Shown: positions 42,064 to 63,122, counted from the stretch's first letter. The stretch is DNA of 64,000 bases from an uncultured Nitrososphaeraceae archaeon (GCA_963779615.1 CAVZZA010000003.1:480001-544000); one strand, 5' to 3'. Notes: generated by a model not told the origin, from the letters alone. Translations and numbers: made by a program.

Positions 42064-43068
42064 GCTTTGCTGCATGATTCTCAAAATTTTGCGATTCTAT
42101 TATATATTTTGTCTAAATGGATATTGTTTTGTTGTATAGTGACGCTTTTAACGCCATTTCTTTCACCATGTTTTCAAACTTTACTGAATAAACATACTCT
42201 CCAAACATCCTCTTTATAGATGAGAATACCGTTTCTACAATCCATCTCTTTCCATAGCTTACGCTATCCTTCCATTTTTGCAATTCATTTTTCTGGTCTA
42301 TGACTAACAGGTTTCTAAGGATATATTCAGTTTTTAGTCGAACTCTGGAATTCTTTCTTAGTTTGATACAAGGTATGACTCCATTGTCCGACAGACATCT
42401 AAAAACATCAATACTGTCATAGGCACCATCAGAAAATAGTTTGCCGACTGCGGCTGTTATTTTTCTATTTGGTTTTATGACATCAACAACCAATTCCAGT
42501 AACGTTTTGCCATTATGAACTTGCTCACCGGTTACCTTAATGGAGAGAATTTTCTTGCTCGTGATGTTGACTGATATGTGGATTTTCAAATATCCTTTTT
42601 TTACATGCCATTTATTACTTAACCATTGGCCTCTGTTCGTAACATTGATTCCTGTAATGTCTATTGCAATGACAAGGTAATTTTCTTTGAATTCCTTGCT
42701 ATCGTTATCTTCTACTTTGATGTCTAACCTGTTTATTCTCCTGCTAATTGTACTGTAGTCCGGGATAGAGGGTACTTTTCCTTTACCATGTCCTTGTGCA
42801 ATTCCTTCTTTGGTTTGCCGATAGGGAAGGTGAAAGTACGCTTTGGCATACCCAAGTAAAAGAAGAAATTTGTCGGGACAGTGAAATGGCTCTCCAACCT
42901 TGTCTTTGTTCATCTCTTTTAACTCCATATACCAATTGTCAATAACGTCAAACCCCAGCAGTATTTCACCACGTATGATCTGAGATTGGTTGTAGTTTGA
43001 CCATTTCACTTGGTTTATTGAAAGATGTCAGCTAACTGTATTTGGAAAAAGGAATCATGCAACAAAGC
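42064..43068 (-). mobile_element. IS5-family insertion sequence
   Basis: IR GCTTTGCTGCATGATTC (42064-42080) versus the reverse complement of GAATCATGCAACAAAGC (43052-43068), 16/17 match, enclosing a transposase. Confidence 0.9.
42113..43009 (-). CDS. IS5-family transposase
   Basis: WSNYNQS..RGE, PDYSTISRR, IAIDITG, DGAYDS and Y.KRWIVETVFS motifs. Confidence 0.9.
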   Translation of the reverse strand: MKWSNYNQSQIIRGEILLGFDVIDNWYMELKEMNKDKVGEPFHCPDKFLLLLGYAKAYFHLPYRQTKEGIAQGHGKGKVPSIPDYSTISRRINRLDIKVEDNDSKEFKENYLVIAIDITGINVTNRGQWLSNKWHVKKGYLKIHISVNITSKKILSIKVTGEQVHNGKTLLELVVDVIKPNRKITAAVGKLFSDGAYDSIDVFRCLSDNGVIPCIKLRKNSRVRLKTEYILRNLLVIDQKNELQKWKDSVSYGKRWIVETVFSSIKRMFGEYVYSVKFENMVKEMALKASLYNKTISI

Positions 43069-43249
43069 AAAAAATACAACACTTTTTTTTAAATCAAACA
43101 TATAAAAAACTTGACCATAAAAATATTATTTAACAAAGACGATAGTTAATAATGACAAGATTTAAGCTGAAAATTTAGACGGATCAATTATTAAAACATA
43201 TATAAATTATTGTAAACGACATAGAAGATGCAATAGAAAGGTAAAACAA

Positions 43250-43324
43250 GGGCTGATGGTTCAGCTTGGCACGAACGTTCGATTCGCAATCGAAAAATCG
43301 CGGGTTCAAATCCCGCTCAGTCCA
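43250..43324 (+). tRNA. tRNA-Ala (anticodon CGC)
   Basis: Acceptor GGGCTGA/TCAGTCC with G3:U70 and discriminator A; anticodon arm TTCGA-TTCGCAA-TCGAA; T arm GCGGG-TTCAAAT-CCCGC; CCA not encoded. Confidence 0.95.
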
Positions 43325-43743
43325 TCGACATAATTTAGAAAGGTTTCGGCAGGTTTTAGGTTTGGAAAACCAAATTGTTAACAAAAAACTGGAAGTTTAG
43401 ATCCAGTGTAATATGAAATAGTTAACAAATTTGTTAGCATAAAAAAACGGCCAATAAGGAAAAGCGAAAAATGTGTAAACATACCAAAATATTTGTTAAC
43501 ACGGCTGTTTTCGATATCAACTAGACAGGAGAATCATATTTTTACAATAACTTCCGATTCTTATCAACAAGCACTAGATTTTCTAAGAAATTTAAACAAA
43601 AAATTTCATATTAAAATTTATTTAAAAACATTGAAAATACTGAAATCAATATTCAATATTCAATAGATAGAATTCAATTATAGACTTTATATAAAGGTAA
43701 TTTATTTATAAATAATTGCTATCCTTCATAATCATAGAGTTAA

Positions 43744-44427
43744 TTACTTTATAATCTGAAAAGAATTAATCATTTTTTGCGCAATTGTCCAGTATTTATG
43801 ATAATGATTTTCTGGGCCGCTATATCCAATCGAATATGCCTTGTCATTATATAATGTCCACATATTCATCACTTTTATAATAAAAGGAGGCATAGATTCT
43901 CCAGGTATTCCAGAAGTTTGTACATTTGAAATTATTTCATGAGCTTCATTACCATCTAAAGTAGTTGCATTGGACTGAATTATTGTAATTCCCGACCAAC
44001 CCAAAGGCATTGTATTGTTATTAATGTTGATATTTTCTTTAGTATATTGATTTATGGTCGTATTTGGGGCCAACTTATCTATTATTATTGCCAAGTTAAC
44101 GTCTTTGGATGGTGCGAAAAACATAACAACAGTTTTGTTGTTGCCGAAAAGATCAAGACCTTGATCTAGTTTTGTCCAATCACCAGGATATTTGATTTTT
44201 ATCCCGTAGGTAGGATTTACATAGGTTAAGAAATCACTTAAGATAGAGCCATTTCCTTGATGTGGATTTGCAATCTGAGCGATTGCTTGTGGGATATCAC
44301 AAAATAATAAAATAATGGATATTGAAGAAAAAGTTATCAGTATAAGTGAAACAGGAATATATAAAATTAAAAGTTTATCATGTTTTTTTATTAGTTCAAG
44401 TATTTTATACGTATTGCACATCATCAC
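43744..44427 (-). CDS. PsbP-like secreted or membrane-anchored protein
   Basis: Hydrophobic leader; FLTYVNPTYGIKIKYPGDW...TLDGNEA...AQKMINSF. Confidence 0.75.
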   Translation of the reverse strand: MMMCNTYKILELIKKHDKLLILYIPVSLILITFSSISIILLFCDIPQAIAQIANPHQGNGSILSDFLTYVNPTYGIKIKYPGDWTKLDQGLDLFGNNKTVVMFFAPSKDVNLAIIIDKLAPNTTINQYTKENININNNTMPLGWSGITIIQSNATTLDGNEAHEIISNVQTSGIPGESMPPFIIKVMNMWTLYNDKAYSIGYSGPENHYHKYWTIAQKMINSFQIIK

Positions 44428-44611
44428 CTTACTACTTTCTGAAAGTTTTTATACATTGTGATGGCTATTTTTTTGCCATCAAAATATTATGTCTCAAAAT
44501 GATAATGTTTGATGGAATAATCCCGTCATCACGATAGACATTAAATAAACTCTTACCTACCAAGGTTATTAGTAGATACCAATTTTGATTTTGTAAATTG
44601 AAATTAGGATT

Positions 44612-45904
44612 TTGAATCAGAAAAATCTTATTAACTGTATTAGGGCATCATATTCATTGTATTGGCAACAATACCAAATCTTATTTTTTCTCTTTTTTGC
44701 TTTTATAATAATAATCTCCTTCTACAAATTTTTTCCTCATTATGTACTTGGTGAATCACCATCATTTTCACGTCAGGTCATTAATAATTTGCAACATAAT
44801 TGGGAAATTCAACCTGAGTTAAATGGGATGAACTGTACGGGAATTCAAGATCGAATCCCATATCCTCAGATGGAAGCCGTTAGTTATTTCAGTGATGGAA
44901 AAATTTTAAATGCTACAATCTGGCTATCAGGTCCACTTGATGAACATCCGCTTCCTGCATATCGTTCGCCAATATATGCAATGGCATTAACTATCATTTC
45001 ACCTAATAAAATCGATTCAGGAGACCCTGATTATGCAGTTATGATTTCATGGAATAATACAAATCAAGAGTGGGACAAAAAGTTTGTTGAATATTCAAAG
45101 TCAAAGTCAAATCATTCAATAGTTACACCTATGTATAACATTTCTTCTGGTTTTTTTAGCAATGAGCCCATATTCTATGGGAATGGAGGAAAGGCTCATA
45201 TCAATTTTTCACTGGATTTGAGTAAAGTAACATCTCCTAGCCAGTACATGGTGTTATTTGGCATACAAGATAATTTTCTTAATATTGGAAATGGAAATAA
45301 TTTTAGTTCATGTATGGTGAGAGATTTTGGCAATAATATTGCATATATTCCTCCTCCAAAATTCAGCATATCAACAGCGCCTAGTCCTCTGATTTTAAGA
45401 CCCGGAGACCAAAAAAACTTGGAACTGAGTGTAAATTCTAGCATCCTTGGAGCCCCTATAATCTCTTTCTCTACAAACCAAAGTAAATTAATCGGATTAA
45501 ATTTTAGTCCTAGTGAAGAACATCTTACTCCAGAAGGCATAACTGTATCAAATTTAAACATACATGTTTTTGGAAATGCTACAGCAAAGCCATATACACT
45601 GCCTATATTTGCAACTATAACTTTTCCTAGTCTCAATATACAAAAGATTTTTACGCCCTTCACTCAGCCCAGCATTCGGTCTGATAATCAGAGTGAGCAA
45701 AATGCAAATATGATTCTAAGACCATCATATTTCACGGTAACAGTACAAGAACCATTAACGTGGCAAGAAAACTTTTCTAACATTTGGTCAGTTTGGGGCG
45801 GTTTTATCAATTTAGTCGGAGGAGGATTCGCTGCAGGTTTTGCAGCACTAGTGTTAAATAGGTTTAAAATAGATCGAAAAAAACAAACGAATGAATCTTC
45901 TTAA
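44612..45904 (+). CDS. hypothetical surface protein with N- and C-terminal membrane segments
   Basis: Beta-rich extracellular region with many N-x-S/T sequons and a C-terminal hydrophobic helix followed by basic residues. Confidence 0.7.
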   Translation: MNQKNLINCIRASYSLYWQQYQILFFLFFAFIIIISFYKFFPHYVLGESPSFSRQVINNLQHNWEIQPELNGMNCTGIQDRIPYPQMEAVSYFSDGKILNATIWLSGPLDEHPLPAYRSPIYAMALTIISPNKIDSGDPDYAVMISWNNTNQEWDKKFVEYSKSKSNHSIVTPMYNISSGFFSNEPIFYGNGGKAHINFSLDLSKVTSPSQYMVLFGIQDNFLNIGNGNNFSSCMVRDFGNNIAYIPPPKFSISTAPSPLILRPGDQKNLELSVNSSILGAPIISFSTNQSKLIGLNFSPSEEHLTPEGITVSNLNIHVFGNATAKPYTLPIFATITFPSLNIQKIFTPFTQPSIRSDNQSEQNANMILRPSYFTVTVQEPLTWQENFSNIWSVWGGFINLVGGGFAAGFAALVLNRFKIDRKKQTNESS

Positions 45905-46469
45905 TCAATCGAGTTTATAAATAATCATTCCACTCTCTACCCTTATCTTTGGAATTGCATCAGTTGCGATTGATAAAAAACGAAAGAAAAGGTAGAAATG
46001 AGTCACTCCGAGTCACTCTCTAAACATAATGATAATTATTACCATATATGGTCGTACTAGATGCAAAAAAACATTTCACGGATATAATTTTAATATCGAA
46101 TATAAATATTATTTCTAGATTGTCATATTTGGGTTATATCAAAGACAAAGAAAATTAATTTTTACTGGTTTTGTTTTTTTAATATAGATTTTGTCTCATC
46201 TTCACATTTTACTTCTGTCCATTTATCGAAGAGTCCATAAGATTGAGAAATGTCTAGATACCTAAGCGTGGCTGCCATGGCACCAGGATTCATACCTTTT
46301 GCATGTAATAGGCTACCAGTATTGTTGGGTTCTTTTGAACTTATATCACTGCTCATGTTTATTAGAAGGAACTTTATATGTATAAGATTTCTTAAGCTTG
46401 GCATTTATATGCATAAACCAATCAGACTAATTTTAGATGACCGATTTCTGTTTTGATATTTATTATTAG

Positions 46470-46620
46470 ATCCCAAGAATACCCCATCTTTTATACGGCT
46501 TGATAAATTCAACAAATACAGAATTGGCGGATTGAAAGATAAATCAAAAAATGGCAGACCTGCAGGGATTTTAGAAGAGTTAGTTTACCAGATAAAAAAG
46601 GAATTATTATCTGAATATTA
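46470..46620 (+). pseudogene. IS630-like transposase HTH fragment
   Basis: Reads NKYRIGGLKDKSKNGRPAGILEELVYQIKKEL, the GLxDxxxxGRP linker of IS630-type transposases; no full ORF. Confidence 0.5.
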
Positions 46621-46980
46621 AAAGTGTCACCTTGAGTAGTCCTTTAGATTGGAATATCTTTGATCACTACGATAGTTCACGGATATTTTGTAGTAATAAT
46701 GATTGCAATAAAGTAACCGAATTGATTATAGTATCTGATTATACTATTGAAATCAATAAATCGTTAGAACACTAATTCATCAGTATTAACCAACAAAAAA
46801 AAATGGTGTAACAACTGGACAAATAAAACAGGTTCCTGATAGCAACAATAAATTTGTATTTAATGTGAAATATAATGATCTAGCCAGGACCGGATATTTT
46901 TATTAATTCTGGAAATGAAGATCTCCGATAAAGTTTTTTATACACATTAATTAGTTCATGATCATAGTCATTTAATCACA

Positions 46981-48313
46981 ATGAACTCCAAAGATATACA
47001 GACATTAAACAATTCGGGTTTGGAACATTATAATCAGGGGGAAAAAAATCATGAGAAAGACGAAGTTAAAAAATCAATAGAATATTTTGATAAAATACTT
47101 AAACTAGAACCAAATAATGTGGTTGCATTAAAAAATAAAGGCAATGCACTTATTTACTTAGATTGGAATGATGAAGCTATCAAATGCTTTGATAAAGACT
47201 TTGGAAATTAATCATTCATCTGCCGATTTATTGAATAATAAAGGCAATGCTTTCTATAAGGCAAATAAATTTGAAGAGGCAAATTACTATTATGATAAAG
47301 CTCTAAAGATCAATGCTAAATTTAAAGAAGTATGGAATAATAAAGGCAATGCTTATGCCAAAATGGTAAAATTTGATACAAATGCAGAAGGTCAAAATTA
47401 TAGATATGCTAAAGAATCTTACGAGAAGGCGATTGAAATAGATGATGAATATTATACTGCATATAATAATTTTGCATTATTAGATGTAATTGAATCCAAG
47501 ATATTTGAAAATAAAGGAAAATTACAAGACGCTAAAGAGCACATTGAAAAATCATATAAAATAAAAAGTGACAATCCAGAAACTTTGGATAATTATGGTG
47601 TAGTTTATTATCACCTTAAAGATTACGATAAAGCTCTAGAGTTTTTCAATAGAGCTAAAGAAAAAGACAATAAATCTGCAATAATAATGTATCACATAGG
47701 AAGAACTAACGTCAAAAAAGAAAATTATATAGAAGCCCTGAGTTGTTTTGATAAATCTTTAGATATCGAGCCTAAATTTGCCGAAGCTTATAATGGGTTA
47801 GCTTTTGTCTATAATAAACTAAAAGACTTCAACAAGGCTATCAAATATGCAAGGAAGGCATTAGAAATAAAGCCTGAACTAGAAGTTGCAGATTATAACC
47901 TCGGAAAATTAGCTTCAAGCGATTTAATTAAAAAACACGGTGATTTTTGGGAATTTTGGACATCTTCGCCTTTTAAAAAACTAATAGTGTTAGTAATTTT
48001 ATTATTAACTTTTGTTTTTGTATCTCTCTATGCAATTCATATTTTCGGTTTTTTCAATCTCAATGAAGTTACAACAACTAACACCACTACAGCAAATAAA
48101 ATAGTAAATACTACAATACTTACCAATTCGGGAAGAGATGTACCTGAAACATATTTTATTATCATAGGTGTATTGCTATTTATTTTACTACTACCTGAAA
48201 TAAGAAAGGCTAAGATGGGCCCGGTTGAATTTGAATTAGATGAATCTGACAAACATCATTTTGAAAATGAGCCTAGTCCGAGCGGTCAAGAAGATGGAGA
48301 TGAAGAAATCTGA
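46981..48313 (+). CDS. TPR-repeat protein with two C-terminal transmembrane helices (frameshift near 47200)
   Basis: Repeated NNKGNA...A...YDKAL.I TPR units across ORFs 46981-47211 and 47168-48313; hydrophobic helices near the end. Confidence 0.85.
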
Positions 48314-48517
48314 TAATGCATACTATATCCAATTAATTTACTTTTTAATCCTTTGTCAATATTATATAATAAGATTAAAATCAGAAAATTTACCAAGTAT
48401 CATTCGCATACAAAGGTTAATTTGCATTCCAAGTTGATTTAAAATACATATAATATATAAGCAAAGCAATTAAAAAATAATTAATCGTAAAATGGTATTA
48501 TAACCCCTTTACCACAA

Positions 48518-48544
48518 GGATTTAAAACCCGCTCAGTCCATCGA
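48518..48544 (+). repeat. att-like copy of tRNA-Ala 3' end
   Basis: GGATTTAAAACCCGCTCAGTCCATCGA versus tRNA GGGTTCAAATCCCGCTCAGTCCATCGA. Confidence 0.85.
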
Positions 48545-48781
48545 ACAACCTTCGGCAGAAATGCCCGTGAGTTTTTATGCTTATTTTTATGAAATAGTTG
48601 ACCATCAAATCCATGAATTTTGGATGGAAAATGGCAAAAAAGTTGACTATATGGTTGACCATCATAGCAAGTAAATCCTCTTTGAATGTTTAAATTGGAT
48701 TTGTCTTTATCAAAGAAAATGTTTTTACTCAAAGTAATTGCATCTACATTATCATTTTTTAAAATTTTCGAGGTTTTATCA

Positions 48782-49457
48782 GGTGCTGTTAACTCAGGCG
48801 TTTATCACCTTCATGTTATGCATTTTTGCAAACAGGTTGAACCAGTTTTTGATATGGCGGAAGTCGCACACCGCTTTTCTGCATGGAAAATAGTCGTCAA
48901 ATCCTTCTGTCCTGTCCTTGATGTACTGTATTGTCCTTTCAATAACACTTTTCTAAAATGTGGAATGAATATGATGCTTCAGTTTCAGGAACAGAAAGGC
49001 CTGCGGATACCATGTGCCTCCGTCAGTTGAAACAGGATACTTTCCGTGAGCCTTGACCAGGCCAAAGATAAACCTTTCCGCAACAAGCATGTTTCTCTCT
49101 TTGGAGATTGACAGTGCGAGAATCTGCCTGTCTTTTGGCTCGATGGCAACCCAAAGCCACACCAATTCCGAACCTGTCTTAACAAGTGTTTCATCCACAA
49201 CATATTCTGAAATCCTTTTCCTTGATCCCGTCTTCCTTCCAGGCCTATATTTCTGAATCCACTTCCAGATTGCAACATGGCTTCTCTTTACAATGTGCAG
49301 GTAAGACAACGCCTTGGCAACGTTTCTCAATGACAAACCAAGAAAGTAAAGATACAAACCGTGGCCAATGTGTTTTGAAGGTGTCCTATTTCTCTTATTG
49401 CGCATACAGGAAATGAGCATCCTCAAGCTATAGGATTTTCGTTAAGTTAACAGGGCC
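48782..49457 (-). mobile_element. IS6-family element with 8-bp target duplication; transposase carries a nonsense codon
   Basis: IRs GGTGCTGTTAACTC and GGCCCTGTTAACTT; TTTTATCA at 48774-48781 and 49458-49465. ORF 49426-48794 has VDET, WLWVAI, STDGG and IERTIQYIKDR, with an in-frame TAG at 48953-48955. Confidence 0.92.
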
Positions 49458-49465
49458 TTTTATCA

Positions 49466-50242
49466 TTAGTATAAATTTTTATAATCGAATTAGATCTAAA
49501 ATCAAAATGCTCGTCATGCTTTTCAATTGTAGGATCTTTTGTTGACTTCAAGGCATATAAATCTGAATTTCTAGATAAAGAAAAAGTCGATATGGGTCCA
49601 TTATAACCAAATGAAGCAATTTTATTAAATCAGGATTTTTTTTGTTTTCTATTGTTAAGTAACATTGAATGTTTCGTTACATCATTAAAGATATTTGCTC
49701 CAACAATAAAATCCAAAAAATCAAGGTTACTTGTGATGTTATCGTCATCATTAATGTAGATTTGTTTTTCTTGCACAATTTTTTTTAACATACTGTGGGA
49801 ATTGGTGTTTTGAAGGCTTTTAGGTTTTGTATAATAAATATAATCTCCATCACCTTCATTATTTTTAACATGATAATCTAGTTTATTATTATCACCATAT
49901 TCAACACCTACTGATTTTAATAGAAAATTTTGTAACTCACTTTCTTTAGGTTTTAAAAAGAGTCGAAACTCTAATGTTAAGATTAAAGACGTTCAAATTT
50001 GTCTTGCTTTTTTTATGTAAGGTATTAGGTGTAATCTTTCGAAAAAATCAATAATTTGCTTATCGGAAGGTAACCCCACAGGATCTAAAAACATTTTAGA
50101 ACATTATAACGTCCTACTAGATTTTTTTCAACATTTGTAAATAAAAATGGCAATGCATATTTTCTATTTTTAATTAACTTTAACAATGAAACAGATACAA
50201 ATTAAAATCAATATTGAATTCTTTTTTGTAATCTTTATCCAT
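49466..50242 (-). pseudogene. decayed gene of unknown function interrupted by the IS6
   Basis: Long open stretches with scattered stops. Removing the IS and one TSD joins IKIYTNDK to TSKILKNDNVDAITLSKNIFF (ORF 48481-48732). Confidence 0.4.
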
Positions 50243-51006
50243 GCTTAAATATTTATTTTTATCCTGAACTTTGTGGTTAATTTTAGGGCCATTTCCTGCT
50301 TTGGTGGTCAAGGGCTATCATTATAGTTTACAAGAGCCCGTAGATTATATTTATCAAATTCAACTGTAGTAGAAGGCAACAATGTTATATTAAATAGTGG
50401 CTTATGTAGGATTAACACAAATATTAAGCAATATTCATTACTGTAAACAATATTATTTATAATGATAAATAAAATAAATTTTAATCGATGCTAAACATTG
50501 TAGACAATTTCAAACTAATTTATGCTCCCCTTTTCTATCTAGCCCCTTCTTATGGATTTTGGAAATTTCATTACAACAACTTTGTCTTTCATTGTGAAAT
50601 AGGTTCAATATTCCTTATCTAGACCAATTGGATTGAAATGAAATAAAGGCTACCTCTTCATAAATTTTTTCGATAGGGTAGCGAATACCTAATCCAGATT
50701 ATGTAGATCCAAATTAAATTTATTTTGACATTTCGGACAGGTTATTTTTAAACTTTCATTAAAATTTATTTGCGGATACAGACCCCAACGTTAAAAAATG
50801 GCTAGAGGAACATAATATGGATATCAATAAAATGAGAGTTGACCTAGTCAATACATCTAAAGAGATCAAAGACCTTTATGATCCATCAAAAAAACCTTCA
50901 ATAACCATATCAAATACCGTTGATAGAACGCTTTCAGAACTAGATAAAAAAACCAAGGTAACTACTTCCTGACTCATAGAAGGATATTTCAAGAAATAAA
51001 ATAGTT

Positions 51007-52181
51007 GAGCATGGGTCATAATTCATTTTAATAATTTAGTCATTATTTTCGGAAGACAAATCAGCATCCTATCATGTACTTAATTGCTTTTGGAATGTCT
51101 TTCTGCATTTTGCAGTTATAATAAACAAGTATTTGATAGAGTAACACGGAAAGAAGAACAACTGCACATACCTTATCATATCCTCTCACAGGTAATGGGT
51201 CCATTCTAAAGACTGATTTGATGTGCTCAAACAGCGGTTCTATGGATTTGCCTCTCTTTGAGTATATGACCTATCCTAGAGCGGATTCATAGAAATCAAC
51301 AATTAGATTTATCCTTTCTGATGGGGTATTTCTGTATCGATGGACTGGACATACAAGTTGAAATCCCAAATCCATGCTCAAGTCATACAGGTTTTGGTCG
51401 TCGTATCCGGGGTCTGCAGTCATGTAATACGTTTTCCTTATTGTTGTAGAATGTAAACTGGATGTTAGTTCTGGAAAGACCTGGTTGTCATATACATTTG
51501 CTGTTGTAGCATCAGCTGATAGGGGTAAAGCAATGGAACCAGTACCTACATACCATGTGCAACTTGTATCCAAATACCCAACCTTTGGTATGACTGAAAC
51601 CCCATCTGGCGTCTGTGTCAATACCCGGACGTGGTACTATTCCTTTTTCCATTGAGGATTTATGCCAGACATGACCTTTTGCTTTGATAGGTGTGCTGTC
51701 TATTGCGAGGATATGTGGTCTGACCAAACCTTCTGAAACAAACAGACATCCCATTGTTGCAATCCTTTCTTTGATGTCGATAGAGATTGTCTTCAACCGC
51801 CTGTCAAAGGTGCGCCTGCTTGGCAACTGCGGTTCAGACAATCCACAGGCTTTCGTCACCTTTTTGTTGTAGGGCAGGTCGATGGAAAGATATTGATGCA
51901 GTGCCCTGTTTGAATCAAGCCGTAACCATATGCGTACTATAAAGCATCTCAAAATTGTGGTGGCAGAATATACACACGGTCTACCGCGGCGGCTGCGGCG
52001 ACAATGATTTTTTGTCTGATTGTCACCGCATGACCAGTCAATCAATCCAATGATATGCAAAATGCTAATTAGAATGGATGATGAACAATTTGTTGCTAGT
52101 CTTTTAGGTAGTACCTTGTTTCACCAAAATACGATACTCCTCTAGGCTAGCTTTATTTGTTATGAATTCTGACCCGGGCTC
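51007..52181 (-). mobile_element. IS element with DDE_Tnp_1-type transposase (frameshifted; family uncertain) and 8-bp target duplication
   Basis: IR GAGCATGGGTCATAATTCAT versus GAGCCCGGGTCAGAATTCAT; AAATAGTT at 50999-51006 and 52182-52189; LAIDSTPI, D.DARWG, GYKLH, ADPGYD motifs. Confidence 0.9.
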
Positions 52182-52261
52182 AAATAGTTATCAAATCGCC
52201 AAGATATATTTTATTATTTGGTAAACAGTACATATAGAAGAAATAAATAAACTTGTCACTA

Positions 52262-52426
52262 AAAAGAAGAATTCTTCGACGAGGGGTACCATTCGGTCCA
52301 CCGTTAGGTCAAGGAAATTGGGTACAGATATTAAAACTAAAGGATTTTTATTTATATCGTATCCAGGGTCAATTGAAGACCAATTTGAATTTTTAATAAG
52401 AAGATGGACTAATAGCATTGGATAAA
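52262..52426 (+). pseudogene. Dyp-type peroxidase C-terminal fragment
   Basis: Reads RRILRRGVPFGPPL then, after a frame change, GFLFISYPGSIEDQFEFLIRRWTNS, matching the DyP motifs around the distal Arg. Confidence 0.65.
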
Positions 52427-52546
52427 CCATCTTGCTCGGAAGATATTTGTGAGGCGGCATTCTGTGTGGTACATTATCCCAATTAAACCATTTAATGATA
52501 GCCAACTATCCAACATTTCAATAGATATTGATAATTAAAGTAATTA

Positions 52547-52894
52547 ATGGGTATAAATTGTATATCATTAGCAATATTTATTAATATCGCTTTTTTAATT
52601 AAAGAAATGTCATTTAAAGTCATTCTAAAACATGCAAGTACAGAGGGTGATGAACACACATATTATGGAATCGTTTTCCTTAAATCTGGTCAAAATCAAT
52701 CAAAGAGGCTTGAATTTTCAGAATCAGAAAACATATTGAAAGCTACATTTACTTTTGACGGTCACCCTGTAGAATCCGGAGAGAATTACTTGGCAGTTTT
52801 GATTCCAGTGAACGAAGGCGAGAGAATTGACAATCCAGAATTTAAAATACAGTTTAATTCTCCAGCACCTGAACCAGAAATAGTTAATTTTTGA
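52547..52894 (+). CDS. hypothetical protein
   Basis: Beta-rich ORF, probable start MSFKV at about 52607; no motif recognised. Confidence 0.55.
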   Translation: MGINCISLAIFINIAFLIKEMSFKVILKHASTEGDEHTYYGIVFLKSGQNQSKRLEFSESENILKATFTFDGHPVESGENYLAVLIPVNEGERIDNPEFKIQFNSPAPEPEIVNF

Positions 52895-53138
52895 AAAATT
52901 AAAATAAGTTCCACCATTCAAAACCAACCAACCTTTTTCTTTAATTAAACATCATATTATAGATTATTATTCATAAAACATGAGAATAAAATTCATTTAT
53001 AGGGTACAAATAACATATTGTTTTATTAAGATAAACAACATTTTAAACTAATATGGAAATATTAATAATTTACTAATTGATAAATTTTAGGATAGTAGAA
53101 CATTACACAAAATAGTAATCAACTGAAAAACATTCCTA

Positions 53139-53152
53139 GCTCAGTCCATCGA
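53139..53152 (+). repeat. second att-like copy of tRNA-Ala 3' end
   Basis: GCTCAGTCCATCGA is an exact 14-nt match to the tRNA end, and 15 nt match the 48531 copy. Confidence 0.75.
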
Positions 53153-53660
53153 ATAGTGACCGAAAGGCACTTCTCCATACGATGAAAAATAAAACCTTTT
53201 TGATCTATTCAATTTTTGGTGGATATTATAGTGAAGGTTATAGGTGTTAAAATAGACCTATTTTATTAAATCGCTAAAACTATTTTCCCAAATCACAGGA
53301 TCCCATAGATATGTTTACACAATCATTTAATGATCTTTCTAAAAATTGGGCCAGTGCTTCAAAGAAATTTGAGTCCATGTACTCTTACTGCAAGAAAGGA
53401 AGTCATGTGAAAGGGATTGATGAAAAAGACGGAGGGGTTGGTGGACGAGAATCCAGAGCATTTTACAAAACGTTCCCAGAAGGGAACAAAAGTATCTTAA
53501 AAACCAAACATGGACACAATTCGTCTCACACCAGGTTGCCTAAACATCTAAAATCATATTTAGATCGCAAAAAGACAACGACATACTTGACAACTCTTTA
53601 TGGGATGTTATTGCAAATTATTGACATATAGATTTAATACATCCCAATATATATTAAATT

Positions 53661-55320
53661 ATGAATACTTTATTTGCATTTCATCCAATGAATGCTACAT
53701 TACAAGTGCCATATTTGACTACAGTCAAGATTGGCGATAATCAAGTCAACGTCGCAGAACCCGCAGAGATTTATTTACGTCATGTTTCCGAAGACCGCAA
53801 GATTATCGCACAACTTGATTTGATCCACTCATTTAAACCACTGACTGAACCAAACTCTTACAGCTTGGCCATGTGGCAGACACCTATACGTAACCAAGGA
53901 GGTAGGGGGACATGCTATACTTTTGCTTGTATAGCCGCAATGGAGGCCATGTACAATCGTGCATTTGGACGGATACTCGACCTTTCCGAGCACTACGCAT
54001 TTCAATTAGGGAAAATTGGTGAGTTATACCCAGATTACATGACCAACGCGCTTCCACATGAAAGTAACACGAGCTACTGGGGAGGCCAAGGAAACAGTAC
54101 CTTTCTTAAATATGATTAGTCGATGCGCCGTGCCCATAGAATCAGAGTGTCCTTATCTAAGTCAGGGAGATTTGGAAAAAATTCGAACATCATTAGGGTT
54201 ACCACCAATGGATGACTTTGAGACTATTACACAAGAAACCATTGATGAATTTGAGTTTGATGAAAAAAATGTGTCAGTTGCGGCACGCAGTCAGGCTGTA
54301 TATCAAGGTACTGGTTACGCGATAATAGGCATTGAGATTGCAGATATCGAAAATGCGATTGCTTCAGATCACGAGGTTGTTTTGGACATCTCGACAAACT
54401 GGTTTACAGATTCTGGTGGCGTATGGCAGTATAGGGCTGATCCCTCTGCACAAGGTCACACAATCTTAATCGTAGGCTATAATCGAGATTCTAAGATCTT
54501 CACGTTCAAGAACAGTTGGGGATCTGGAGGCCTTGACTCTATGAGTTATGATTGCTTTTCAAAAATAGCTGCAGGTGCTTGTACACTTAATGGTGTTGTG
54601 AGTCCTCTTCGTGGTCCTCAGGTCTTGTCACGATGGCTTGGTAAATGGAATTCCGATCATGATGGCTGGCGCGGTAAACTCACGATTCGACGAGTCACGA
54701 ACTTTCGGGACAGCGGTACTAGTGCTCCAACAAAGATAGGCAATTGGTATGCTCCAGATAATACACGTCGTGACATAAATGGTTCCTTCCATGAAAACGA
54801 TTTGCAGTGTATTTATTGGATGGCTTCAAACTCTGACAAGGTGCGACCTGGTCAGATCATAGGACAACCCTTTACTGTCGAGAATTACTCCTGGGAAGCG
54901 ACTAAATGTGCCGGTACGACGGTCTGGGGCGATTCTAGTTTTGGAGTAATCCTTGATAGATCCGGGATCCCCATCAGTTCTAATAACGGGGACTCCAAAG
55001 AGTGGATAGGAAGCTGGTCAATGAATCATGATGGCTGGCGCGGTATTCTTACAGTTAGTGATTTTATAAACATACGACTCCCACCAGGTCTCACCTTAAC
55101 TATTGTACGAGCAAGTTACAAGGGAGCTGATGGTACTATATATTCAGTAGCGGGATTGCGTGACGCAAGCAATTCACATCATTTATCGATTACTATTGCA
55201 TTTCCAGACAATAACCAAACTTTTGACCTTTATCTTTTCAGCCAAGAACTCGATAAAGCAGCAGGAAACACTGTCTGGTCAGACAAAACCTTTGGTGTTC
55301 AATTATACAAGATCGTCTAG
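53661..55320 (+). CDS. papain-like (C1A) cysteine peptidase with duplicated C-terminal beta domain (frameshift near 54110)
   Basis: TPIRNQGGRGTCYTFA (oxyanion Gln, catalytic Cys), DLSE, GHTILIVGY (His), FKNSWG (Asn); two W.G.W...HDGWRG.LT repeats. Confidence 0.85.
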
Positions 55321-55788
55321 ATGTATCGTTACTCATGATGATATGAGATATTCCTATAGAAAGCAGGAGACAAATGGTACTCCCTAATACAGGCCCGTAA
55401 TTTGAACATGCGGTGAAGAATATTCAAGCGCGTATTTCGGGTAGGGATTACTCTACCTGTTGGGTAAATATGCTTTTTATCTTTAATTGAACTGTCATTC
55501 TAACATCAAGTGCAAATCAATAAAAATGATATAATATCTATATTAAAAATCAAAAATCACCCTGCTTTGATATTCCGGATAATAAATAGAATGCAATAAT
55601 ATTAAAATTTAAAACCACCCTTTAGATATACATCAATAGAATATATAAGAAAGAAACAAATGATTTGTCTCCATGTTTTTCGTTAGGCTGCAATTCCTAC
55701 GAAATTGAGTGGTATGATTTATTTAGAAGTTTTCAAATGTTTTGTTGAATCATAAAAGAGAAAAATCCAAATATAGATAGATATACCA

Positions 55789-56855
55789 TAGATCTCTTGC
55801 GTAATTGCCACTAAACAGCTTTATGACCATCAGTTTCTCATTAACCTGTACTTTCTTTGCTCTCGTATCACAGTTTATCCAGAAAACCATTGCTTTTCAA
55901 GTCATTCCCCGATCTGACGGTAAAGGAGTTTGATGAAATTTATGATAAGGGGATTGCAAAAAGACACGGCAAGCATGAGATCGTGTTTATCCAAAAGAAA
56001 AGATATTATAGAAAGAAGGCTCGGTGCAGGCAGACATTTCAAACGGGATGTCAAAAACAGGTTTCTGACGCTTTTGGTCTGCTACTGCCGTCTTTACATG
56101 ACCTACACGTTGGCTGGTTTTTTGTTTGACTTGTATCATAGTAACATCTGCAGGGATGTATAGAAGATTCAACCGCTGGTTCGAGTGTGTGCCAATTCCA
56201 CAAAAGATGCACAAAATAACCAAAAGGCTGCGCACACCAGAAGAAGTTGAAAAGCATTTCCAAGGCTTTCTGCCTTTCACCTATTGGACAGAACAACAGA
56301 TGCCACGGCCTGAAAACAGGAGAAGAAAAAAGATGTGTTATTCTGGAAAGAAGAAGAAAAGGATGTTGTAAAGACACAGCTTATGGTTAACAACCAAGGC
56401 ATCATTATTCATAAAACAGGCCATAAGAAAGGAGGGATGCATTATTATAATATTTGCAGATATAAAACGAATCATCCTGTAACTCCCCAAAAAAATTGCA
56501 AATGTTAACGTGTTTAACCTTGGTTAAATCGGAGTTGAGAAAGAATTTCCTGAACAAAGATCATCTATACCAAACAAAAAATAAGAGAAACCAAAAAGAT
56601 CTGTCTCAAGAAGAAAAAGAATACAATCAACACCATTCTAGGAAGAGGATAGTGATAGAGCAAGTCATTTGCAGAATGAAAAAGTACAGGATAATTATTG
56701 AGGATGTTTTCCGAAAAAGGCTCAAAAAGTATGATAGGGAATAAGATATAGTATCAGGACTGGTAACTATAGAATTATGAAGCGCCTTTATTAGATGGCA
56801 AATGCAAATGTCATCCGGAACGGTATTTTGGATTTCTAATTATGCAAGAGGTCTA
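55789..56855 (+). mobile_element. decayed IS5-family (DDE_Tnp_4-type) element
   Basis: IRs TAGATCTCTTGCGTAATT and AATTATGCAAGAGGTCTA; fragments FKSF..LTVKEF, YSGKKK and RIVIEQVICRMKKYRI in several frames. Confidence 0.85.
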
Positions 56856-57009
56856 CGATAGGACATACTTTGACTATGCAGCTAACTAAATATTCCCATT
56901 TGTATTATTTATCATAATAACCAAGAATTTAATATGTATTGAACAATCAATAAATCATTCAAAAATAACTACTATTAGTTTTCATTTACTAACAATCATA
57001 TTAACATAC

Positions 57010-58203
57010 TCACTTATTCTCCCTTAAGAAAAAGGAAAAAATTTTTTTAAAGTTGAGAGATAGAAACATCTTTACAATGTTTAAAAACGAAAATTCCAGA
57101 TTCAATTCTTTACGCGATTTTGTGCCAAAAATTGTTGGCGAATTTTTTAGATAGGGAACATATTCCCATTTCCACAAGTCATGATTATTATCACTTCCCG
57201 ACATTGCGTGATTAGAGGTATTTATAAAAATAACGGGATTAAAATAATTAGATGATAAATATTTTATGTTTCTGTGAAGCGCAGGATGGGGATCGAAATG
57301 GGCAGAATCATATTCTATCTCAAAGTCTTTAGAAAAAATGTTCTCAAAAACAAAATGTTTGTTGTTTTTATTGGGTTGTTGATCATCCATACAAATTTTC
57401 AAAGTTTCTATATCAGCAACCCTGTGGTACATCAGTAATCTAAGTTTCTCATATGCAAAATTTAAGATCTTGTGTCGCCTTAACACTTCATTGTTAAAAA
57501 TAATGGATACTTCCCAAATATTCGGCCCTGTATGTGCACAATGAATTTGTCGAACATAGTTTTTTAAAGAATCCAGTGCAGGCTGATATATTACAGGAAT
57601 AACAGGTATTTTTTTTTGTGTAATTTTTTCGTTTATTTCATCTTTTGATACACCAAGATCGAATAATCCTTTTTCAAGTAATTCTGAAGAGTCAATACTC
57701 AATTTAATGTATCTATAAACTTCATAAATCCCACAGTTCTCAACGTCTTTCCCATCGTACCAATCCCAAATCCAAAATTTTCTATTACCATCACCATCAA
57801 GCTGAAAGCCAATTCTTTGTTTTTTCTTGTTTTTTTCTAATGGAATATCCAAGTTTTCTCTAACATTATAGTTATCATTAGAAAGAGCATAGTCTTCGAT
57901 TTTAATCGGATCAACACGTTTTATATCAATTCCCAACATATATCTAATACCAACAGTCATGTTTCCCCTGTATTCACTATTTTTCATTGTTGTGCTACGC
58001 AATATTATTCTAAGTTCATCTTTTGTTATTTTTCCTGCTATATCCATTGTACAGTTATCCCAATCTAATCTTACAATTTTGCCTGTCCTTTTGACTTTTT
58101 TAATGCTATAATTTTTGAGATTATTGTTATGTATCTCTTTGATCTCGTAAAAATTAACGTCATGTGTGAACCAGAATTTAACGCTTTTGGCAGTAATTAC
58201 CAT
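57010..58203 (-). CDS. hypothetical protein
   Basis: Intact 397-aa ORF; no family recognised. Confidence 0.7.
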   Translation of the reverse strand: MVITAKSVKFWFTHDVNFYEIKEIHNNNLKNYSIKKVKRTGKIVRLDWDNCTMDIAGKITKDELRIILRSTTMKNSEYRGNMTVGIRYMLGIDIKRVDPIKIEDYALSNDNYNVRENLDIPLEKNKKKQRIGFQLDGDGNRKFWIWDWYDGKDVENCGIYEVYRYIKLSIDSSELLEKGLFDLGVSKDEINEKITQKKIPVIPVIYQPALDSLKNYVRQIHCAHTGPNIWEVSIIFNNEVLRRHKILNFAYEKLRLLMYHRVADIETLKICMDDQQPNKNNKHFVFENIFSKDFEIEYDSAHFDPHPALHRNIKYLSSNYFNPVIFINTSNHAMSGSDNNHDLWKWEYVPYLKNSPTIFGTKSRKELNLEFSFLNIVKMFLSLNFKKIFSFFLRENK

Positions 58204-58499
58204 AAATCATTTACAAAAACCAATTGTAAAAGGTTTGCTATTTTCACATGACAATAAACCCCATTTCTGCAGGTATTTGTCAAATGCAAATACTTGAAAA
58301 TAAATTTGATATTTTTGCAAATTATTTAATGACCTGTAGAGTAAAAATCAGTTGGTTAAGAAACCCATTATAGAAAAATATTTCTTAACTTGGTAATAAT
58401 GCAATTTATTCTGTCATTTGGCGAATCATACCTTTATCCTATATTTTAGACATTTATACCCCAAGTTTAACTATAGGCAAACATTAATGCGGAACATGA

Positions 58500-59100
58500 T
58501 AATGATTCTGAACAATTTACATAAAAATAACCGCTCAGTGCACTTTAGGTGGAGCTCAATTCTTATTATGTCTAGTAATATCCGAGGCACTGTATCCAGG
58601 CTATAGCCTTTCAGAACAATTCGTAAGCGATTTAGGTGCAACATTCAATCCGGGTTGCGTGATTTATCAACCCTCTTCCATTGTTTTCAATACATCTGTC
58701 TTTTTATTGGTGGTTATTGAGTTTGATTAAATCATCTTTATCTTTCAAATCCATTATCGTCTTTTTGCAATCCTTTTATGATAGGAAGTACAGGTGCAAT
58801 TGGGGTAGGGATATTCCCTGAGACAGCAGGATTGATTCACATCATATTTGCATTTATAGCGTTTCTTTTCATGGGACTTTCTGCAATTTCTTCCTATCAT
58901 ATAGCTCCTACCCTATGTCTTACTTCTCGTTGATCTTGGGGATAATGATCTTGATAACACTCTTTTTGTCGTCCATGGGATTAACTCTCGGTTTGGGAAC
59001 TGACGGGATTGAAAGAGTCATTTTGTGTCCTAGTATTATTTGGATCATTGGCATAGGCGCATATATGCTTGGGAGGACATCATCAGCAGTTACACTATGA
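58500..59100 (+). pseudogene. DUF998-family membrane protein, disrupted
   Basis: GGAQFLLCLVISEALYPGYSLSEQFVSDLG, GVGIFPET..IHIIFA and GLGTDGIERVIL across broken frames. Confidence 0.7.
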
Positions 59101-59317
59101 TGTCAAGCGATGTATGACATTCGTAGTATTACGTAGTTATTGGTATAACAAATCATCTGTGATAAGAAAATCAATAAGGATTAAAGATTAACTTTTATTT
59201 CTATATTACCATATGCAAAAGAATCTAAAGAAATTTAGTAGTTATTATATTTTAAATATCATAACGTAGAAATATGTTAAAATTCTTTATATACTAAACT
59301 TTATTTCTAAAAATTTA

Positions 59318-59875
59318 ATGAAAAGTAATACTCATTTAATTGTTATTACTGCCAGTCTTATTACTATATTTATATTAATCGAAGTCATTAGTTTTAGTCC
59401 TTTATCCACAGCAAACCTTGACTTTGAAAAAGAGATGTTTTTGTCAGTTTGGAACAAAACTGGATTTCATTCCGAATTTGATTCATATGTAGATTCTGAA
59501 CCCTATGGATATGGTGCTTATGATGTACATCAGACAAATTTATTCAACAGAGGGGACACACTCTTGCTTTATGTGGAGCCAGCAGGCTTCAGCCACAAGC
59601 GTTTAGTTAGTGAAAAAAATGATACCTTATATTCAATGAACTTCACAGCTGATGTTTTAGTTTCCAACAATGGAGGGAAATTAATTGCAAGTAAAGAGAA
59701 TATCCCCATAAGGGAAATAGTATCTCATCATAAAAATACAGAATTGTATTTAACACTAGCAATAAATCAAACTATACCTTTCCCAACAGGCGATTACACT
59801 TTTCAGTATTTCATAACAGATCAGAACTCGGGAAAGAATTTTAAAATAGTAAAAGATGTTCGGATCAGTATCTGA
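59318..59875 (+). CDS. hypothetical secreted protein (beta-sandwich-like)
   Basis: Signal-like N-terminus; GDTLLLYVEPAGF...GDYTFQYFITD. Confidence 0.7.
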   Translation: MKSNTHLIVITASLITIFILIEVISFSPLSTANLDFEKEMFLSVWNKTGFHSEFDSYVDSEPYGYGAYDVHQTNLFNRGDTLLLYVEPAGFSHKRLVSEKNDTLYSMNFTADVLVSNNGGKLIASKENIPIREIVSHHKNTELYLTLAINQTIPFPTGDYTFQYFITDQNSGKNFKIVKDVRISI

Positions 59876-60095
59876 AAAACGTGGCATGTATAGATTGATT
59901 TTGCCACATATGCCAAACATAAGGAATTAAATCTGTTACTTGAAACATTTGATTATATAGTAACTCAAATTGCTAGTCAGACAATATATGTGGCTAATAA
60001 ATATAATTACCATATATATTATTAAGGCTGATTATTTAATGCCGTTCTGAAGTTATATAGTAGTGATCTTAACTATAACTGGTCTTGCATAAAGT

Positions 60096-61997: not shown

Positions 61998-62168
61998 TCT
62001 ATAGAATTACTTTTTTTCTGATTTTGCGGCATATTGAGTAATTAATTTCTGTGATGATAATTTGTTAATGCGAAAGGACTACTGCGGATATATACCACTT
62101 CAATCGAATGATATTGCATCTATATGCAATATTTTGATTTTGTCAGCCTATTCTATATGGCAATTGCA

Positions 62169-62903
62169 CTAAAACCCGACAATGTGTGATGCTAGGATAG
62201 CCTGTATAAAACCATCCTTTCTATTTTCCATATATTCTTCTAAAAAGAGCCAGCTGTTGATATAGCGGAAGGATTGGTTGTTCTGAGCCAATTCCTTGTG
62301 AACTAAAGCATTCCAATCAATACCAACATCATTGTTATTACTATGATCCTGACCTATTGGTTGTTCTTCAATGTTTTGGCAGCCATACTTCACCAGATCC
62401 GTCATATTGATGTTGTTAGGATTGTTATGTGCTAAAATCGGATCGTTAGTTATGATGTATTTTTGAATATTAAATACATGTTTTATTCTTAGGCATATTT
62501 TGTCATTATAATTGGCATCTTTTTGTGAAATCTGTGCATTAAGCTGGACAAATTCCGTTAAGACATCGGATAAGTTATTCCAATTCTGTTGGATTTGGGG
62601 GTTTGGAAAGTAGGACTGTATCTTTGAACCAATGGTTGCCTTTGACATTTCCCATTCTACAGAGGCAGATCCAAAATCCATCTGGTTCGAAAAACCTGGG
62701 ATTTGAACTAATCTGGCGGTGATGATTATGTTGGATATGGCCTTACTGATCTCACCGGCGACATCCGTCTTTAGTTCAAGCTCTTTCTGATAGTCTTGCC
62801 ATTGGCGGGTATAATAAGGGATTATGAGGCTGGAAATTATTGCCCCTATCACTAAAAGCATAAAAGGATGGGCAAGTGCCTTTGCAATTTGAGTTTTGGT
62901 CAA
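62169..62903 (-). CDS. hypothetical protein with N-terminal transmembrane helix
   Basis: HPFMLLVIGAIISSLIIPYYTRQWQ followed by a helical region. Confidence 0.7.
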   Translation of the reverse strand: MTKTQIAKALAHPFMLLVIGAIISSLIIPYYTRQWQDYQKELELKTDVAGEISKAISNIIITARLVQIPGFSNQMDFGSASVEWEMSKATIGSKIQSYFPNPQIQQNWNNLSDVLTEFVQLNAQISQKDANYNDKICLRIKHVFNIQKYIITNDPILAHNNPNNINMTDLVKYGCQNIEEQPIGQDHSNNNDVGIDWNALVHKELAQNNQSFRYINSWLFLEEYMENRKDGFIQAILASHIVGF

Positions 62904-63122
62904 AAGGATGTTTATTTTACTTTTTAACTTCTACTTATCAGTTTATGATTTGCGTTTATTTTGCTAAATGTAAAATACATGAAATAGGAGATTAAAAGTT
63001 ATTTCTATGACCTGCAAGTTATATTAAATGACTAACATGAGACATGTTTTATGTATTGACATATGAATCAGTATATTGTTTCACAAAACCCAAATTAAAA
63101 CCGATTTTCAAAATCTATGTAC

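Follow-up and report, generated by a model that had tools for sequence, protein, structure and literature searches.

The window analysed here is a 64,000-nucleotide stretch (C3:480001-544000) of the genome of an uncultured Nitrososphaeraceae archaeon, a soil ammonia oxidiser referred to as G000 (3.17 Mb in 5 contigs). It contains one tRNA gene, an intact tRNA-Ala(CGC) on the plus strand, behind which the 3' end of the tRNA is repeated in direct orientation and divides the DNA into segments that carry accessory genes and no integrase. Other G-numbers denote related genomes, and the genus sample comprised 34 genomes. Coordinates of the features are collected in Table 1.

The repeated word is a 14-mer, GCTCAGTCCATCGA, made up of the final 10 bases of the tRNA and the four bases TCGA (the core). 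Three exact copies start at 43315, 48531 and 53139, all on the plus strand. At up to two mismatches the window gave four matches against 0.12 expected, and 0 of 100 shuffles reached four. The fourth match (51337-51350, minus strand, two mismatches) lies within an insertion sequence (IS) fragment and was treated as chance. An earlier reading of the stretch, made from its letters only (the sequence-only reading), had placed repeats of the tRNA 3' end at 48518-48544 (24/27) and 53139-53152 (14/14), bounding segments of about 5.2 and 4.6 kb. Both repeats were recovered on comparison with 43302-43328, the first match running back into the T-loop, and the measured spacings are 5216 and 4608 bp.

Genome-wide there are six exact copies of the core, all direct and at most 37.5 kb downstream of the tRNA, and none elsewhere; a single copy with one mismatch lies on contig C5. 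The copies past the window end are at C3:550502, 557175 and 560863 (window-equivalent 70502, 77175 and 80863), and the last of them ends the array at C3:560876. With six clustered copies and none elsewhere, the 14-mer is specific to the locus and not a dispersed repeat, and the array extends beyond the window. Numbered from the tRNA, the six copies bound five segments of 5216, 4608, 17363, 6673 and 3688 bp. Behind the intact tRNA its 3' end thus recurs in direct orientation at this locus only, as in a tandem array of site-specifically integrated elements. The hotspot with at least two successive insertions that the sequence-only reading had proposed is thus supported, and extended to five exact-core segments plus more degenerate copies further along the contig.

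Site-bearing arms beside the cores

Directly after each core lies an arm of 120-400 nt, of a type A or a type B, and spaced along it are three sites, TTGTTAACAA or GTTGACYAT. The A arm is found at the tRNA (copy 1) and past copies 4 and 5, with 79% identity between the arms of copies 1 and 5 over ~190-210 nt and 89% between those of copies 1 and 4 over 80 nt. Past copies 2 and 6 lies the B arm, whose two versions agree at 83-84% over 120-166 nt. The arm at copy 3 is weak and of a separate kind. The palindrome TTGTTAACAA is found in the A arm at +47 and +91, with a third site, TTGTTAAC, at ~+165. Sites of the B arm are of the GTTGACYAT type and lie at +51, +96 and +108. The site words of the A and B arms were counted 16 times in 680 nt (0.13 expected) and 8 times in 659 nt (0.02 expected), respectively, in arms that are homologous copies, so that these counts are not independent trials. 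The genome has only nine clusters of at least three TGTTRAC within 150 bp; five belong to arms next to a repeated tRNA 3' end, a sixth to a tandem repeat in coding sequence, and three are unrelated.

On the other side of the core, copies 2 and 6 are preceded by an X arm (30-45 nt), which is a degenerate copy of the tRNA T-arm region. A Y arm of ~310 nt precedes copy 5, and before copies 3 and 4 there is neither type. The X arm, with consensus GAACCCcTTTaCCACAAGGAATTtAATCCC, aligns across two integrase-bearing elements of relatives and seven integrase-less junctions.

The arms are conserved between genomes. Twenty non-identical A or B junctions, from 6 genomes and 7 metagenome contigs, share one register from the core onward, and the first TTGTTAAC site falls in some of the most conserved columns of their alignment. 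The arms of G000 and G016 agree at 84-89%, more than the syntenic coding genes that precede the tRNA, which agree at 70-81%. A module of Y arm, core and A arm (~720 nt, 80% identical) is the sole match of G000 to contigs of G016, G021 and G005, even at the protein level. All five non-tRNA cores are exact over 14 of 14 bases, whereas the adjoining arms are 75-89% identical. By illustrative arithmetic, not a test, a 14-mer would stay unchanged at ~83% identity with a probability of ~0.07 per copy. Exact cores beside diverged arms fit cores that were reset at each recombination and arms that had diverged before insertion.

No RNA family was found in the arms: an Rfam search of 43000-54000 at E up to 1 returned the tRNA and three sub-threshold chance matches. 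RNA structure in the A arm was considered and rejected, the sole obvious hairpin (GGTTTGG-AAAA-CCAAA) being absent from 4 of 11 arms.

Two features mark the copy-4 A arm. Just past it a 190-amino-acid (aa) protein with an N-terminal C2H2 zinc finger is encoded (C3:550837-551409, minus strand), and again at C5:840224-840796. The C5 duplicate spans the gene, the arm, the core (one mismatch) and 160 nt upstream at 83-84% identity and has no tRNA; weaker paralogues of the gene occur in five more places. The protein was rejected as a candidate arm binder, its gene lying at only one array junction and in the C5 duplicate. The arm itself is cut by a 38-nt dispersed repeat (C3:550566-550603), which is present at ~20 other places in G000 at 92-97% identity and probably represents one end of a miniature inverted-repeat transposable element or of an IS.

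Diverged copies of core and arm lie at C3:612668 (core GCTCAGTCCgTaGA, B arm) and C3:618541 (A-like, very degenerate), and also at C3:188.4-188.6 kb (minus strand) and, with no tRNA nearby, at C5:840966. The first two are consistent with candidate older, distal units. They sit among ordinary-looking genes (PTH2, MFS, ferritin), so one continuous 95 kb island is not claimed. When the flank of G012 was compared with 560-600 kb of G000, only IS and rearranged ParB-like and response-regulator sequences matched, and no exact distal boundary of the island emerged.

The exact 14-mer is present in 8 of the 34 genus genomes. G016 has six copies, three of them in tandem after the tRNA on contig C31 (54082, 63467 and 69503), and G021 has two, 1.7 kb apart. 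The tRNA itself was found in 33 of the 34, with a variable downstream flank: the B arm in G011, G016 and G018; the A arm in G000 and G004; an integrase gene in G015, G002 and G048 (truncated in G020); and unrelated sequence starting CTTTT in G012, G041, G044, G046 and G024. The segment 2 B arm is 81-87% identical to the sequence directly 3' of the intact tRNA in G011, G016 and G018.

Genes upstream of the tRNA are syntenic in G000, G016, G018, G012 and G041. The tRNA of G016 aligns to G000 through C3:523328, the final base of the core, and the B flank of G016 re-aligns right after copies 2 and 6. A break at this base is the signature expected of insertion at the core. In the complete genomes G012 and G041 the tRNA has another flank, and no second core 9-mer CYCAGTCCA was found within 40 kb of it. 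Alignment to relatives, which the sequence-only reading had named as one check, gave both breakpoints at the repeats and sites without the array, in genomes none of which is close enough to reveal a difference of one unit. From the tRNA to a conserved ferritin gene the distance is 94 kb in G000, as against 23 kb in G012 and just 15 kb in G015; the G000 ferritin gene (617.7-618.1 kb) is 79-81% identical in protein sequence to its counterparts in the other two.

In G010 (contig C183) the first 50 nt of tRNA-Ala(CGC) are duplicated (16345-16394) 5.6 kb upstream of the intact gene (21948-22022), a hint at a further kind of element that targets the 5' half of this tRNA.

Cargo of the segments and integrases of relatives

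Segment 1 carries a PsbP-like gene, a 430-aa open reading frame (ORF) without family and TPR genes; segment 2, short ORFs and fragments of two IS; segment 3, papain-like protease fragments, inverted IS copies, a secreted repeat protein and a GMC oxidoreductase; segment 4, C2H2 zinc-finger, TPR, NHL and PT-repeat proteins; and segment 5, a 453-aa ORF and a DyP-type peroxidase. Each unit holds one to ~10 genes, mostly secreted, TPR, NHL or oxidoreductase. No gene family is common to all five, and only TPR and NHL paralogues recur.

None of the five encodes an integrase of its own. Pfam (95 ORFs, 522-624 kb) and PHROGs (28 unassigned ORFs) returned IS transposases and no integrase, resolvase or replication protein, and PF00589 had no match in C3:520-625 kb. 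The same interval was searched by tblastn with five genus integrases (the three PF00589 integrases of G000 and two Ala(CGC)-type integrases from relatives), which gave only three matches of 22-29 aa (E 0.011-0.75), located at or close to the array loci. N- or C-terminal fragments of an SSV-type split integrase were found beside no core. The sequence-only reading, which had seen neither an integrase nor such a fragment in its two segments, was right on this point.

Ten of the 12 complete core-bounded segments examined lack an integrase (five in G000, two in G016, one in G021, two in metagenomes); those of G015 and G002 have one. The integrase-less segments on G016:C31 are 9.4 and 6.0 kb long. 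The 1.7 kb segment of G021 (C185) holds a single 480-aa glucose/sorbosone-dehydrogenase-like gene. One metagenome unit (2.17 kb) consists of an A arm, a 453-aa gene and an X arm, and the other (0.996 kb) of a B arm, a 146-aa ORF and an X arm. Single-ORF units of 1.0-2.2 kb thus make up 3 of the 10, and the five of G000 are 3.7-17.4 kb long with genes on both strands. The metagenomes were scanned with the core followed by RAAGG. Of 36 loci, 28 were dropped as unrelated chance matches and 8 were genuine; no integrase lies within 2 kb of these 8. A scan of IMG/VR with AATCCCGCYCAGTCCAT gave 6 loci, all in unrelated high-G+C coding sequence with no tRNA or integrase, and no free viral or plasmid form.

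In G015 a 437-aa integrase ORF begins ~55 nt past the tRNA, and the element ends 10.9 kb later in an X arm and the core CCCGCCCAGTCCAT, which is the core in G015's own allele. The element of G002 also starts with an integrase after the tRNA and ends after 17.9 kb in X arm and core. An integrase also adjoins tRNA-Ala(CGC) in G048 and G020. In the autonomous elements the integrase starts ~55-70 nt past the core and stays whole. Judged from these positions, the integrase appears to use the same tRNA as the array, and its elements share the X arm-core end. Their left ends are unrelated, with an A or B arm in the integrase-less units versus the integrase start in the autonomous ones. The G015 element carries a TPR protein, an HNH-domain protein and a DNA methyltransferase, and nothing in it matches the G000 units except TPR repeats.

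The 437-aa protein is a predicted tyrosine recombinase. It matches PF00589 at E 0.002, below the cut-off, and a PHROG integrase at E 5.7e-4, and it is 27% identical to a G000 integrase that scores 27.5 bits, above the Pfam cut-off. R181, K209, Y297-x-x-R300-H301, W322 and Y332, which we take to be the catalytic set of a tyrosine recombinase, are invariant in a 4-sequence alignment, and a CxxC...CxxC zinc ribbon is present. A sequence search of the PDB with the integrase alignment returned zinc-ribbon ribosomal proteins only. The family has matches in 28 of the 34 genus genomes. Among the best 80 loci in the named genome collection, nearly all are Nitrososphaerales records, and 37 have a tRNA just upstream of the integrase, of many kinds and in three cases Ala(CGC).

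At default thresholds G000 has three PF00589 integrases, each adjoining another tRNA (Val-TAC, Arg-GCG and Ala-TGC). With the genus integrases as queries, tblastn turned up many more copies beside G000 tRNAs, some whole and some partial. Surveys that rely on integrases and Pfam cut-offs will undercount elements in the genus. Integrase homologues of G016 on C96 and C16 were rejected as part of its array, as no Ala core lies nearby.

All 38 tRNAs of G000 were scanned for further copies of their 3'-terminal 12 nt plus 2. For tRNA-Gly(CCC) there are two more in direct orientation, which lie 14.8 and 22.2 kb downstream, and another on C1. The repeat comprises ~30-45 nt of the 3' part of the tRNA, and after each copy lies a conserved arm (TTGGCATTTGAAATGGGTGATTTGTTGAC...) rich in TTGTTGAC; tblastn found no integrase match in the interval. 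This array is of the same design as that at tRNA-Ala(CGC). The cores at tRNA-Arg(TCT) are each followed by the start of an integrase gene, of which the tRNA-adjacent one is frameshifted, and this array is one of conventional, integrase-bearing elements. With both kinds of array in one genome, the integrase-less design looks like a class and not an accident.

Table 1. Features of the tRNA-Ala(CGC) locus in the window, and two other tRNA arrays of G000 (window positions unless a contig is named)
Feature	Position	Strand	Evidence or remark
IS transposase gene, 298 aa, DDE_Tnp_1	42113..43009	-	Pfam PF01609, E 5.9e-21
Intact tRNA-Ala(CGC), attachment target (attB/attL side)	43250..43324	+	ARAGORN; Rfam RF00005, 62.6 bits
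Core copy 1	43315..43328	+	exact match
Segment 1 A arm, proximal	43329..43521	+	79% to copy-5 arm, 89% to G016 arm
Site TTGTTAACAA in segment 1 A arm	43375-43384
Site TAGTTAACAA in segment 1 A arm	43419-43428
Site TTGTTAAC in segment 1 A arm	43493-43500
2.55 kb block splitting segment 1 A arm	43522..46071		copy-5 A arm aligns to C3:523340-523521, then 526072-526195
PsbP-like gene, in 2.55 kb block	43744-44427	-	Pfam
430-aa ORF, no family, in 2.55 kb block	44612-45904	+
Segment 1 A arm, distal	46072..46195	+	75% identical to copy-5 arm positions 238-362
TPR-repeat genes, 76 aa and 381 aa, overlapping frames, segment 1 cargo	46981..48313	+	Pfam TPR_1, E 8e-32
X arm, segment 1 right end: TAACCCCTTTACCACAAGGATTTAAAACCC	48501..48530	+	aligned with 8 other X arms, including G015 and G002
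Core copy 2	48531..48544	+	exact
Segment 2 B arm	48545..48664	+	84% to copy-6 arm
GTTGACYAT-type sites in segment 2 B arm	48595-48604, 48640-48649, 48652-48661
IS6/IS240-type transposase fragment, segment 2	48953..49426	-	Pfam PF13610, E 2.8e-07; many genome copies
Two overlapping ORFs, DDE_Tnp_1 transposase fragments (broken IS), segment 2	51271..52060	-	Pfam
Core copy 3	53139..53152	+	exact; preceding bases neither X nor Y
Segment 3, first 10.8 of 17.4 kb	53153..64000	+	continues to window-equivalent 70501; next core C3:550502
Papain-like protease fragments, segment 3	53661-55320		Pfam
IS fragments and 397-aa ORF, segment 3
Secreted repeat protein, segment 3	60096-61271		61-64% G+C
tRNA-Gly(CCC) array	C3:1116660, 1124042, 1138827 (strand given for these three); also C1:184858	-
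tRNA-Arg(TCT) array	C4:252018, 267756, 277472; C1:186955; C5:226415

The IS upstream of the tRNA is outside the array and marks a plastic neighbourhood. The 2.55 kb block in the segment 1 A arm corresponds to a gap of 43 nt in the copy-5 arm. Within segment 3 a patch of 61-64% G+C (window 60096-61798; genome ~33% G+C) encodes a signal-peptide protein of perfect tandem repeats (15.8 x 36 bp and 7.1 x 45 bp), ending in Gly/Thr-rich 6/24-bp repeats (TRF and translation). The 100% identity of the repeats suggests a very recent expansion. The gene is flanked, in the manner of a composite transposon, by the two copies of an inverted duplication of ~2.4 kb (window 55789-58203, and window 63120 to C3:545617; 66-76% nucleotide identity), each with an IS (DDE_Tnp_4) fragment and the 397-aa ORF or a homologue.

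Origin of the array

We favour, with moderate confidence, the reading that the locus is a tRNA-Ala(CGC) hotspot in which non-autonomous cassettes were inserted in tandem and in trans, and that it is probably frozen now. The units would be integrative cassettes without a recombinase of their own, and the integrase family of the relatives would have inserted them. In the proposed mechanism the ~437-aa tyrosine integrase with its C-terminal zinc ribbon, specific to Nitrososphaeraceae, would be supplied by autonomous elements. Its substrate would be a circular cassette whose core has an X or Y arm on one side and an A or B arm on the other, and it would recombine this core with the 3' end of the tRNA or a core already in place. 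A new unit would thereby be inserted and older units displaced distally. The repeated arm sites may bind the arm-binding part of the integrase or an accessory protein. Because an intact cognate integrase is missing from G000, the array probably cannot move unless a helper element arrives.

Several points weigh against this reading. Mobility is inferred from sequence, and the closest genome is only ~80% identical in the flanking genes. The genomes with an integrase at the tRNA (G015, G002 and G048) show no integrase-less array, in what is a small sample. Conversely, the array genomes G000, G016 and G021 show no integrase on the array contigs, and 0 matches of the integrase family fall on contigs with integrase-less arrays. 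Such a separation of integrase and array is not the simplest prediction of a helper-dependent system, though the sample is small. The nearest cognate homologue in G000 (C4:252101-253388) is frameshifted and lies beside an intron-bearing tRNA-Arg(TCT). Right ends in G000 are not uniform, with X in 2 of 5, Y in 1 of 5 and neither in 2 of 5. Decay is also seen, in the IS fragments of segment 2, the repeat that cuts the copy-4 arm and the 2.55 kb block in the copy-1 arm. No arm pair is more than 89% identical, and so there is no sign of very recent spread.

The end of the array bears on the same question. The copy-6 B arm is followed by genes for proteins of 370 and 306 aa, whose homologues follow the B arm of G016:C78 and the A-like arm past attR in G015. 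It may therefore be that A and B arms descend, as alleles, from native flanking sequence of old date, and copy 6 is probably the distal end of a young array. Cassettes could be born from flank DNA between two cores.

That the segments are eroded islands, once-autonomous elements that lost integrase and backbone genes by deletion and IS activity, we regard as unlikely. In favour of erosion, relatives have autonomous elements that share the core and X arm, and the truncated integrase beside this tRNA in G020 indicates that decay in place happens. Segments 2 and 3 hold IS fragments and broken genes, and many integrase fragments lie beside tRNAs elsewhere in G000. Random deletion would nevertheless be expected to give variable junctions or integrase fragments, whereas the 20 junctions keep the register of the A and B arms, and tblastn at E up to 10 over 100 kb yielded no integrase remnant beyond the three short matches. 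Units of 1.0-2.2 kb with both ends intact around a single ORF, and five of five cores exact beside arms of 75-89% identity, argue in the same direction. On these grounds non-autonomous cassettes are preferred to erosion. The sequence-only reading had offered both; the cassettes have gained support and the eroded islands less, though the IS fragments and the repeat inserted in an arm show that some erosion took place.

A very unlikely account takes the A and B arms as alleles of the original flank, multiplied by homologous recombination or segmental duplication with imported DNA between them, and involves no site-specific integration of integrase-less units. The two arms share an architecture, with sites at ~+50 and ~+95, and either may directly follow the intact tRNA (B in G011, G016 and G018; A in G000 and G004). 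Homologous genes come after the distal B arm of G000 and after that of G016:C78, and in G015 and G002 the integrase element lies between the tRNA and an A-like arm. The junction with the 190-aa zinc-finger gene, moreover, is duplicated on another contig without a tRNA. Against duplication of a flank stand the X-arm right ends, which also end the integrase-bearing elements and are the signature of attP and not of a flank, and the G016 unit, which runs from a B arm to an X arm and is bounded by tRNA and core. The cargo between the repeats is unrelated and hence not duplicated, and the cores are exact where the arms have diverged.

That a short word recurs by chance, or that the assembly is at fault, has a negligible probability: the core is only 14 nt long and 28 of the 36 metagenome loci matched by a core-based pattern were unrelated, but no shuffle reached the observed count, the six copies are direct and clustered after the tRNA, homologous arms flank them, the same arrays occur in other genomes, the contig is 1.2 Mb long, and a 14-mer is too short to misjoin reads.

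For the cassettes inserted in trans, a wider interpretation can be put forward tentatively, and we hold it to be possible and somewhat doubtful. The genus may have an integron-like, tRNA-anchored cassette system, in which the 437-aa integrase, acting in trans, captures, stacks and reshuffles units of 1-17 kb at tRNA-Ala(CGC) and tRNA-Gly(CCC). Unit ends would consist of an X or Y arm, a tRNA-derived core of 14-17 nt and an A or B arm with three phased TTGTTRAC sites. The two types of arm, GTTAACAA and GTTGACCA, would reflect two classes of specificity in a single accessory DNA-binding protein, and genes for secreted, surface and oxidoreductase proteins would form a pool open to exchange.

Comparison with known systems

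The nearest bacterial parallel is given by the cis-mobilizable elements (CIMEs) of Firmicutes. These are DNA segments flanked by attachment (att) sites, with sites for a helper integrase and no recombination or transfer genes. They lie in tandem at the target of the helper and undergo accretion-mobilisation with integrative conjugative elements (ICEs) and integrative mobilizable elements (IMEs). CIMEs are described as deletion derivatives of bacterial ICEs. The units described here resemble them in the helper-type core and X arm and in the lack of an integrase in 10 of 12 complete units. They differ in that no similarity to the backbone or cargo of the integrase-bearing elements was found beyond TPR repeats, where a derivation by deletion would leave a shared backbone, and also in their own conserved arms, in some single-gene units, in the archaeal host and in a mobilisation that is putative.

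Arrays of tyrosine-recombinase elements at one site are already known. As the available text of a survey describes them (PMC6563490), att sites of thaumarchaeal elements are short, with a median of 17 bp; direct repeats of a tRNA 3' end bound the units, one site is re-used, and the integrase adjoins the tRNA and stays intact, as it does in the autonomous relatives here. Elements in that survey were found partly via their integrases, whereas here five of five units have no integrase and carry non-coding, site-bearing arms. The word Nitrosocosmicus is absent from that paper. In the accessible text of a paper on skin Nitrosocosmicus (PMC13245735), integrase-flanked islands are mentioned and tRNA arrays are not.

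SSV-type integration in Sulfolobales, which splits the integrase gene (PMC7253208), likewise targets a tRNA 3' end and can leave integrated copies without an intact integrase. It differs in that no integrase fragments flank the units of the present array and that the integrase ORF of the relatives starts past the core and stays whole. Tycheposon islands of Prochlorococcus, in the accessible text on them (bioRxiv 10.1101/2020.12.28.424599), have partial tRNAs between and beyond the elements. Like the present array they abut a full-length tRNA, newer insertions push older ones inward, the cargo is niche-adaptive and most island DNA lies outside recognisable autonomous elements. As described there, tycheposons carry an integrase, many with replication genes, whereas the array units have neither and end in A/B and X/Y arms; the domain of life and the integrase family are also different.

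Integron cassettes, including those of archaeal integrons (PMC9668308), are alike in forming a row of small recombinase-less units, some of a single ORF and ~1 kb, that end in recombination sites and on which a recombinase at the array's head would act in trans. The present array differs in being headed by a tRNA and an A arm, with no integrase in 100 kb and no IntI at the array, in its anchor at a tRNA 3' end, in junctions that are not attC-like hairpins and in many multi-gene units in both orientations. Folding of the attC kind was assessed at five junctions and rejected (z -1.14 to +1.76 against 200 shuffles each).

The genomes of Nitrosocosmicus-like ammonia oxidisers are large and plastic, and where their accessory genes come from is poorly understood. 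Here 37.5 kb of accessory DNA behind one tRNA consist of discrete, site-bounded units, none of them self-mobile. Arrays of this kind would be missed entirely by integrase-first surveys. The arms and core offer concrete substrates for an archaeal integrase family that lies below current Pfam thresholds. In the literature outside subscription journals and supplements, no description was found of integrase-less, arm-bearing tRNA cassettes in archaea. If mobilisation in trans is correct, the array would be, as far as that literature goes, the first described archaeal counterpart of bacterial cis-mobilizable elements and cassette arrays, and would explain how single adaptive genes spread among these archaea. 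As far as the literature was searched, then, one-site arrays of tyrosine-recombinase elements are familiar, and what is new is an array at an archaeal tRNA whose units lack an integrase and bear arms of their own.

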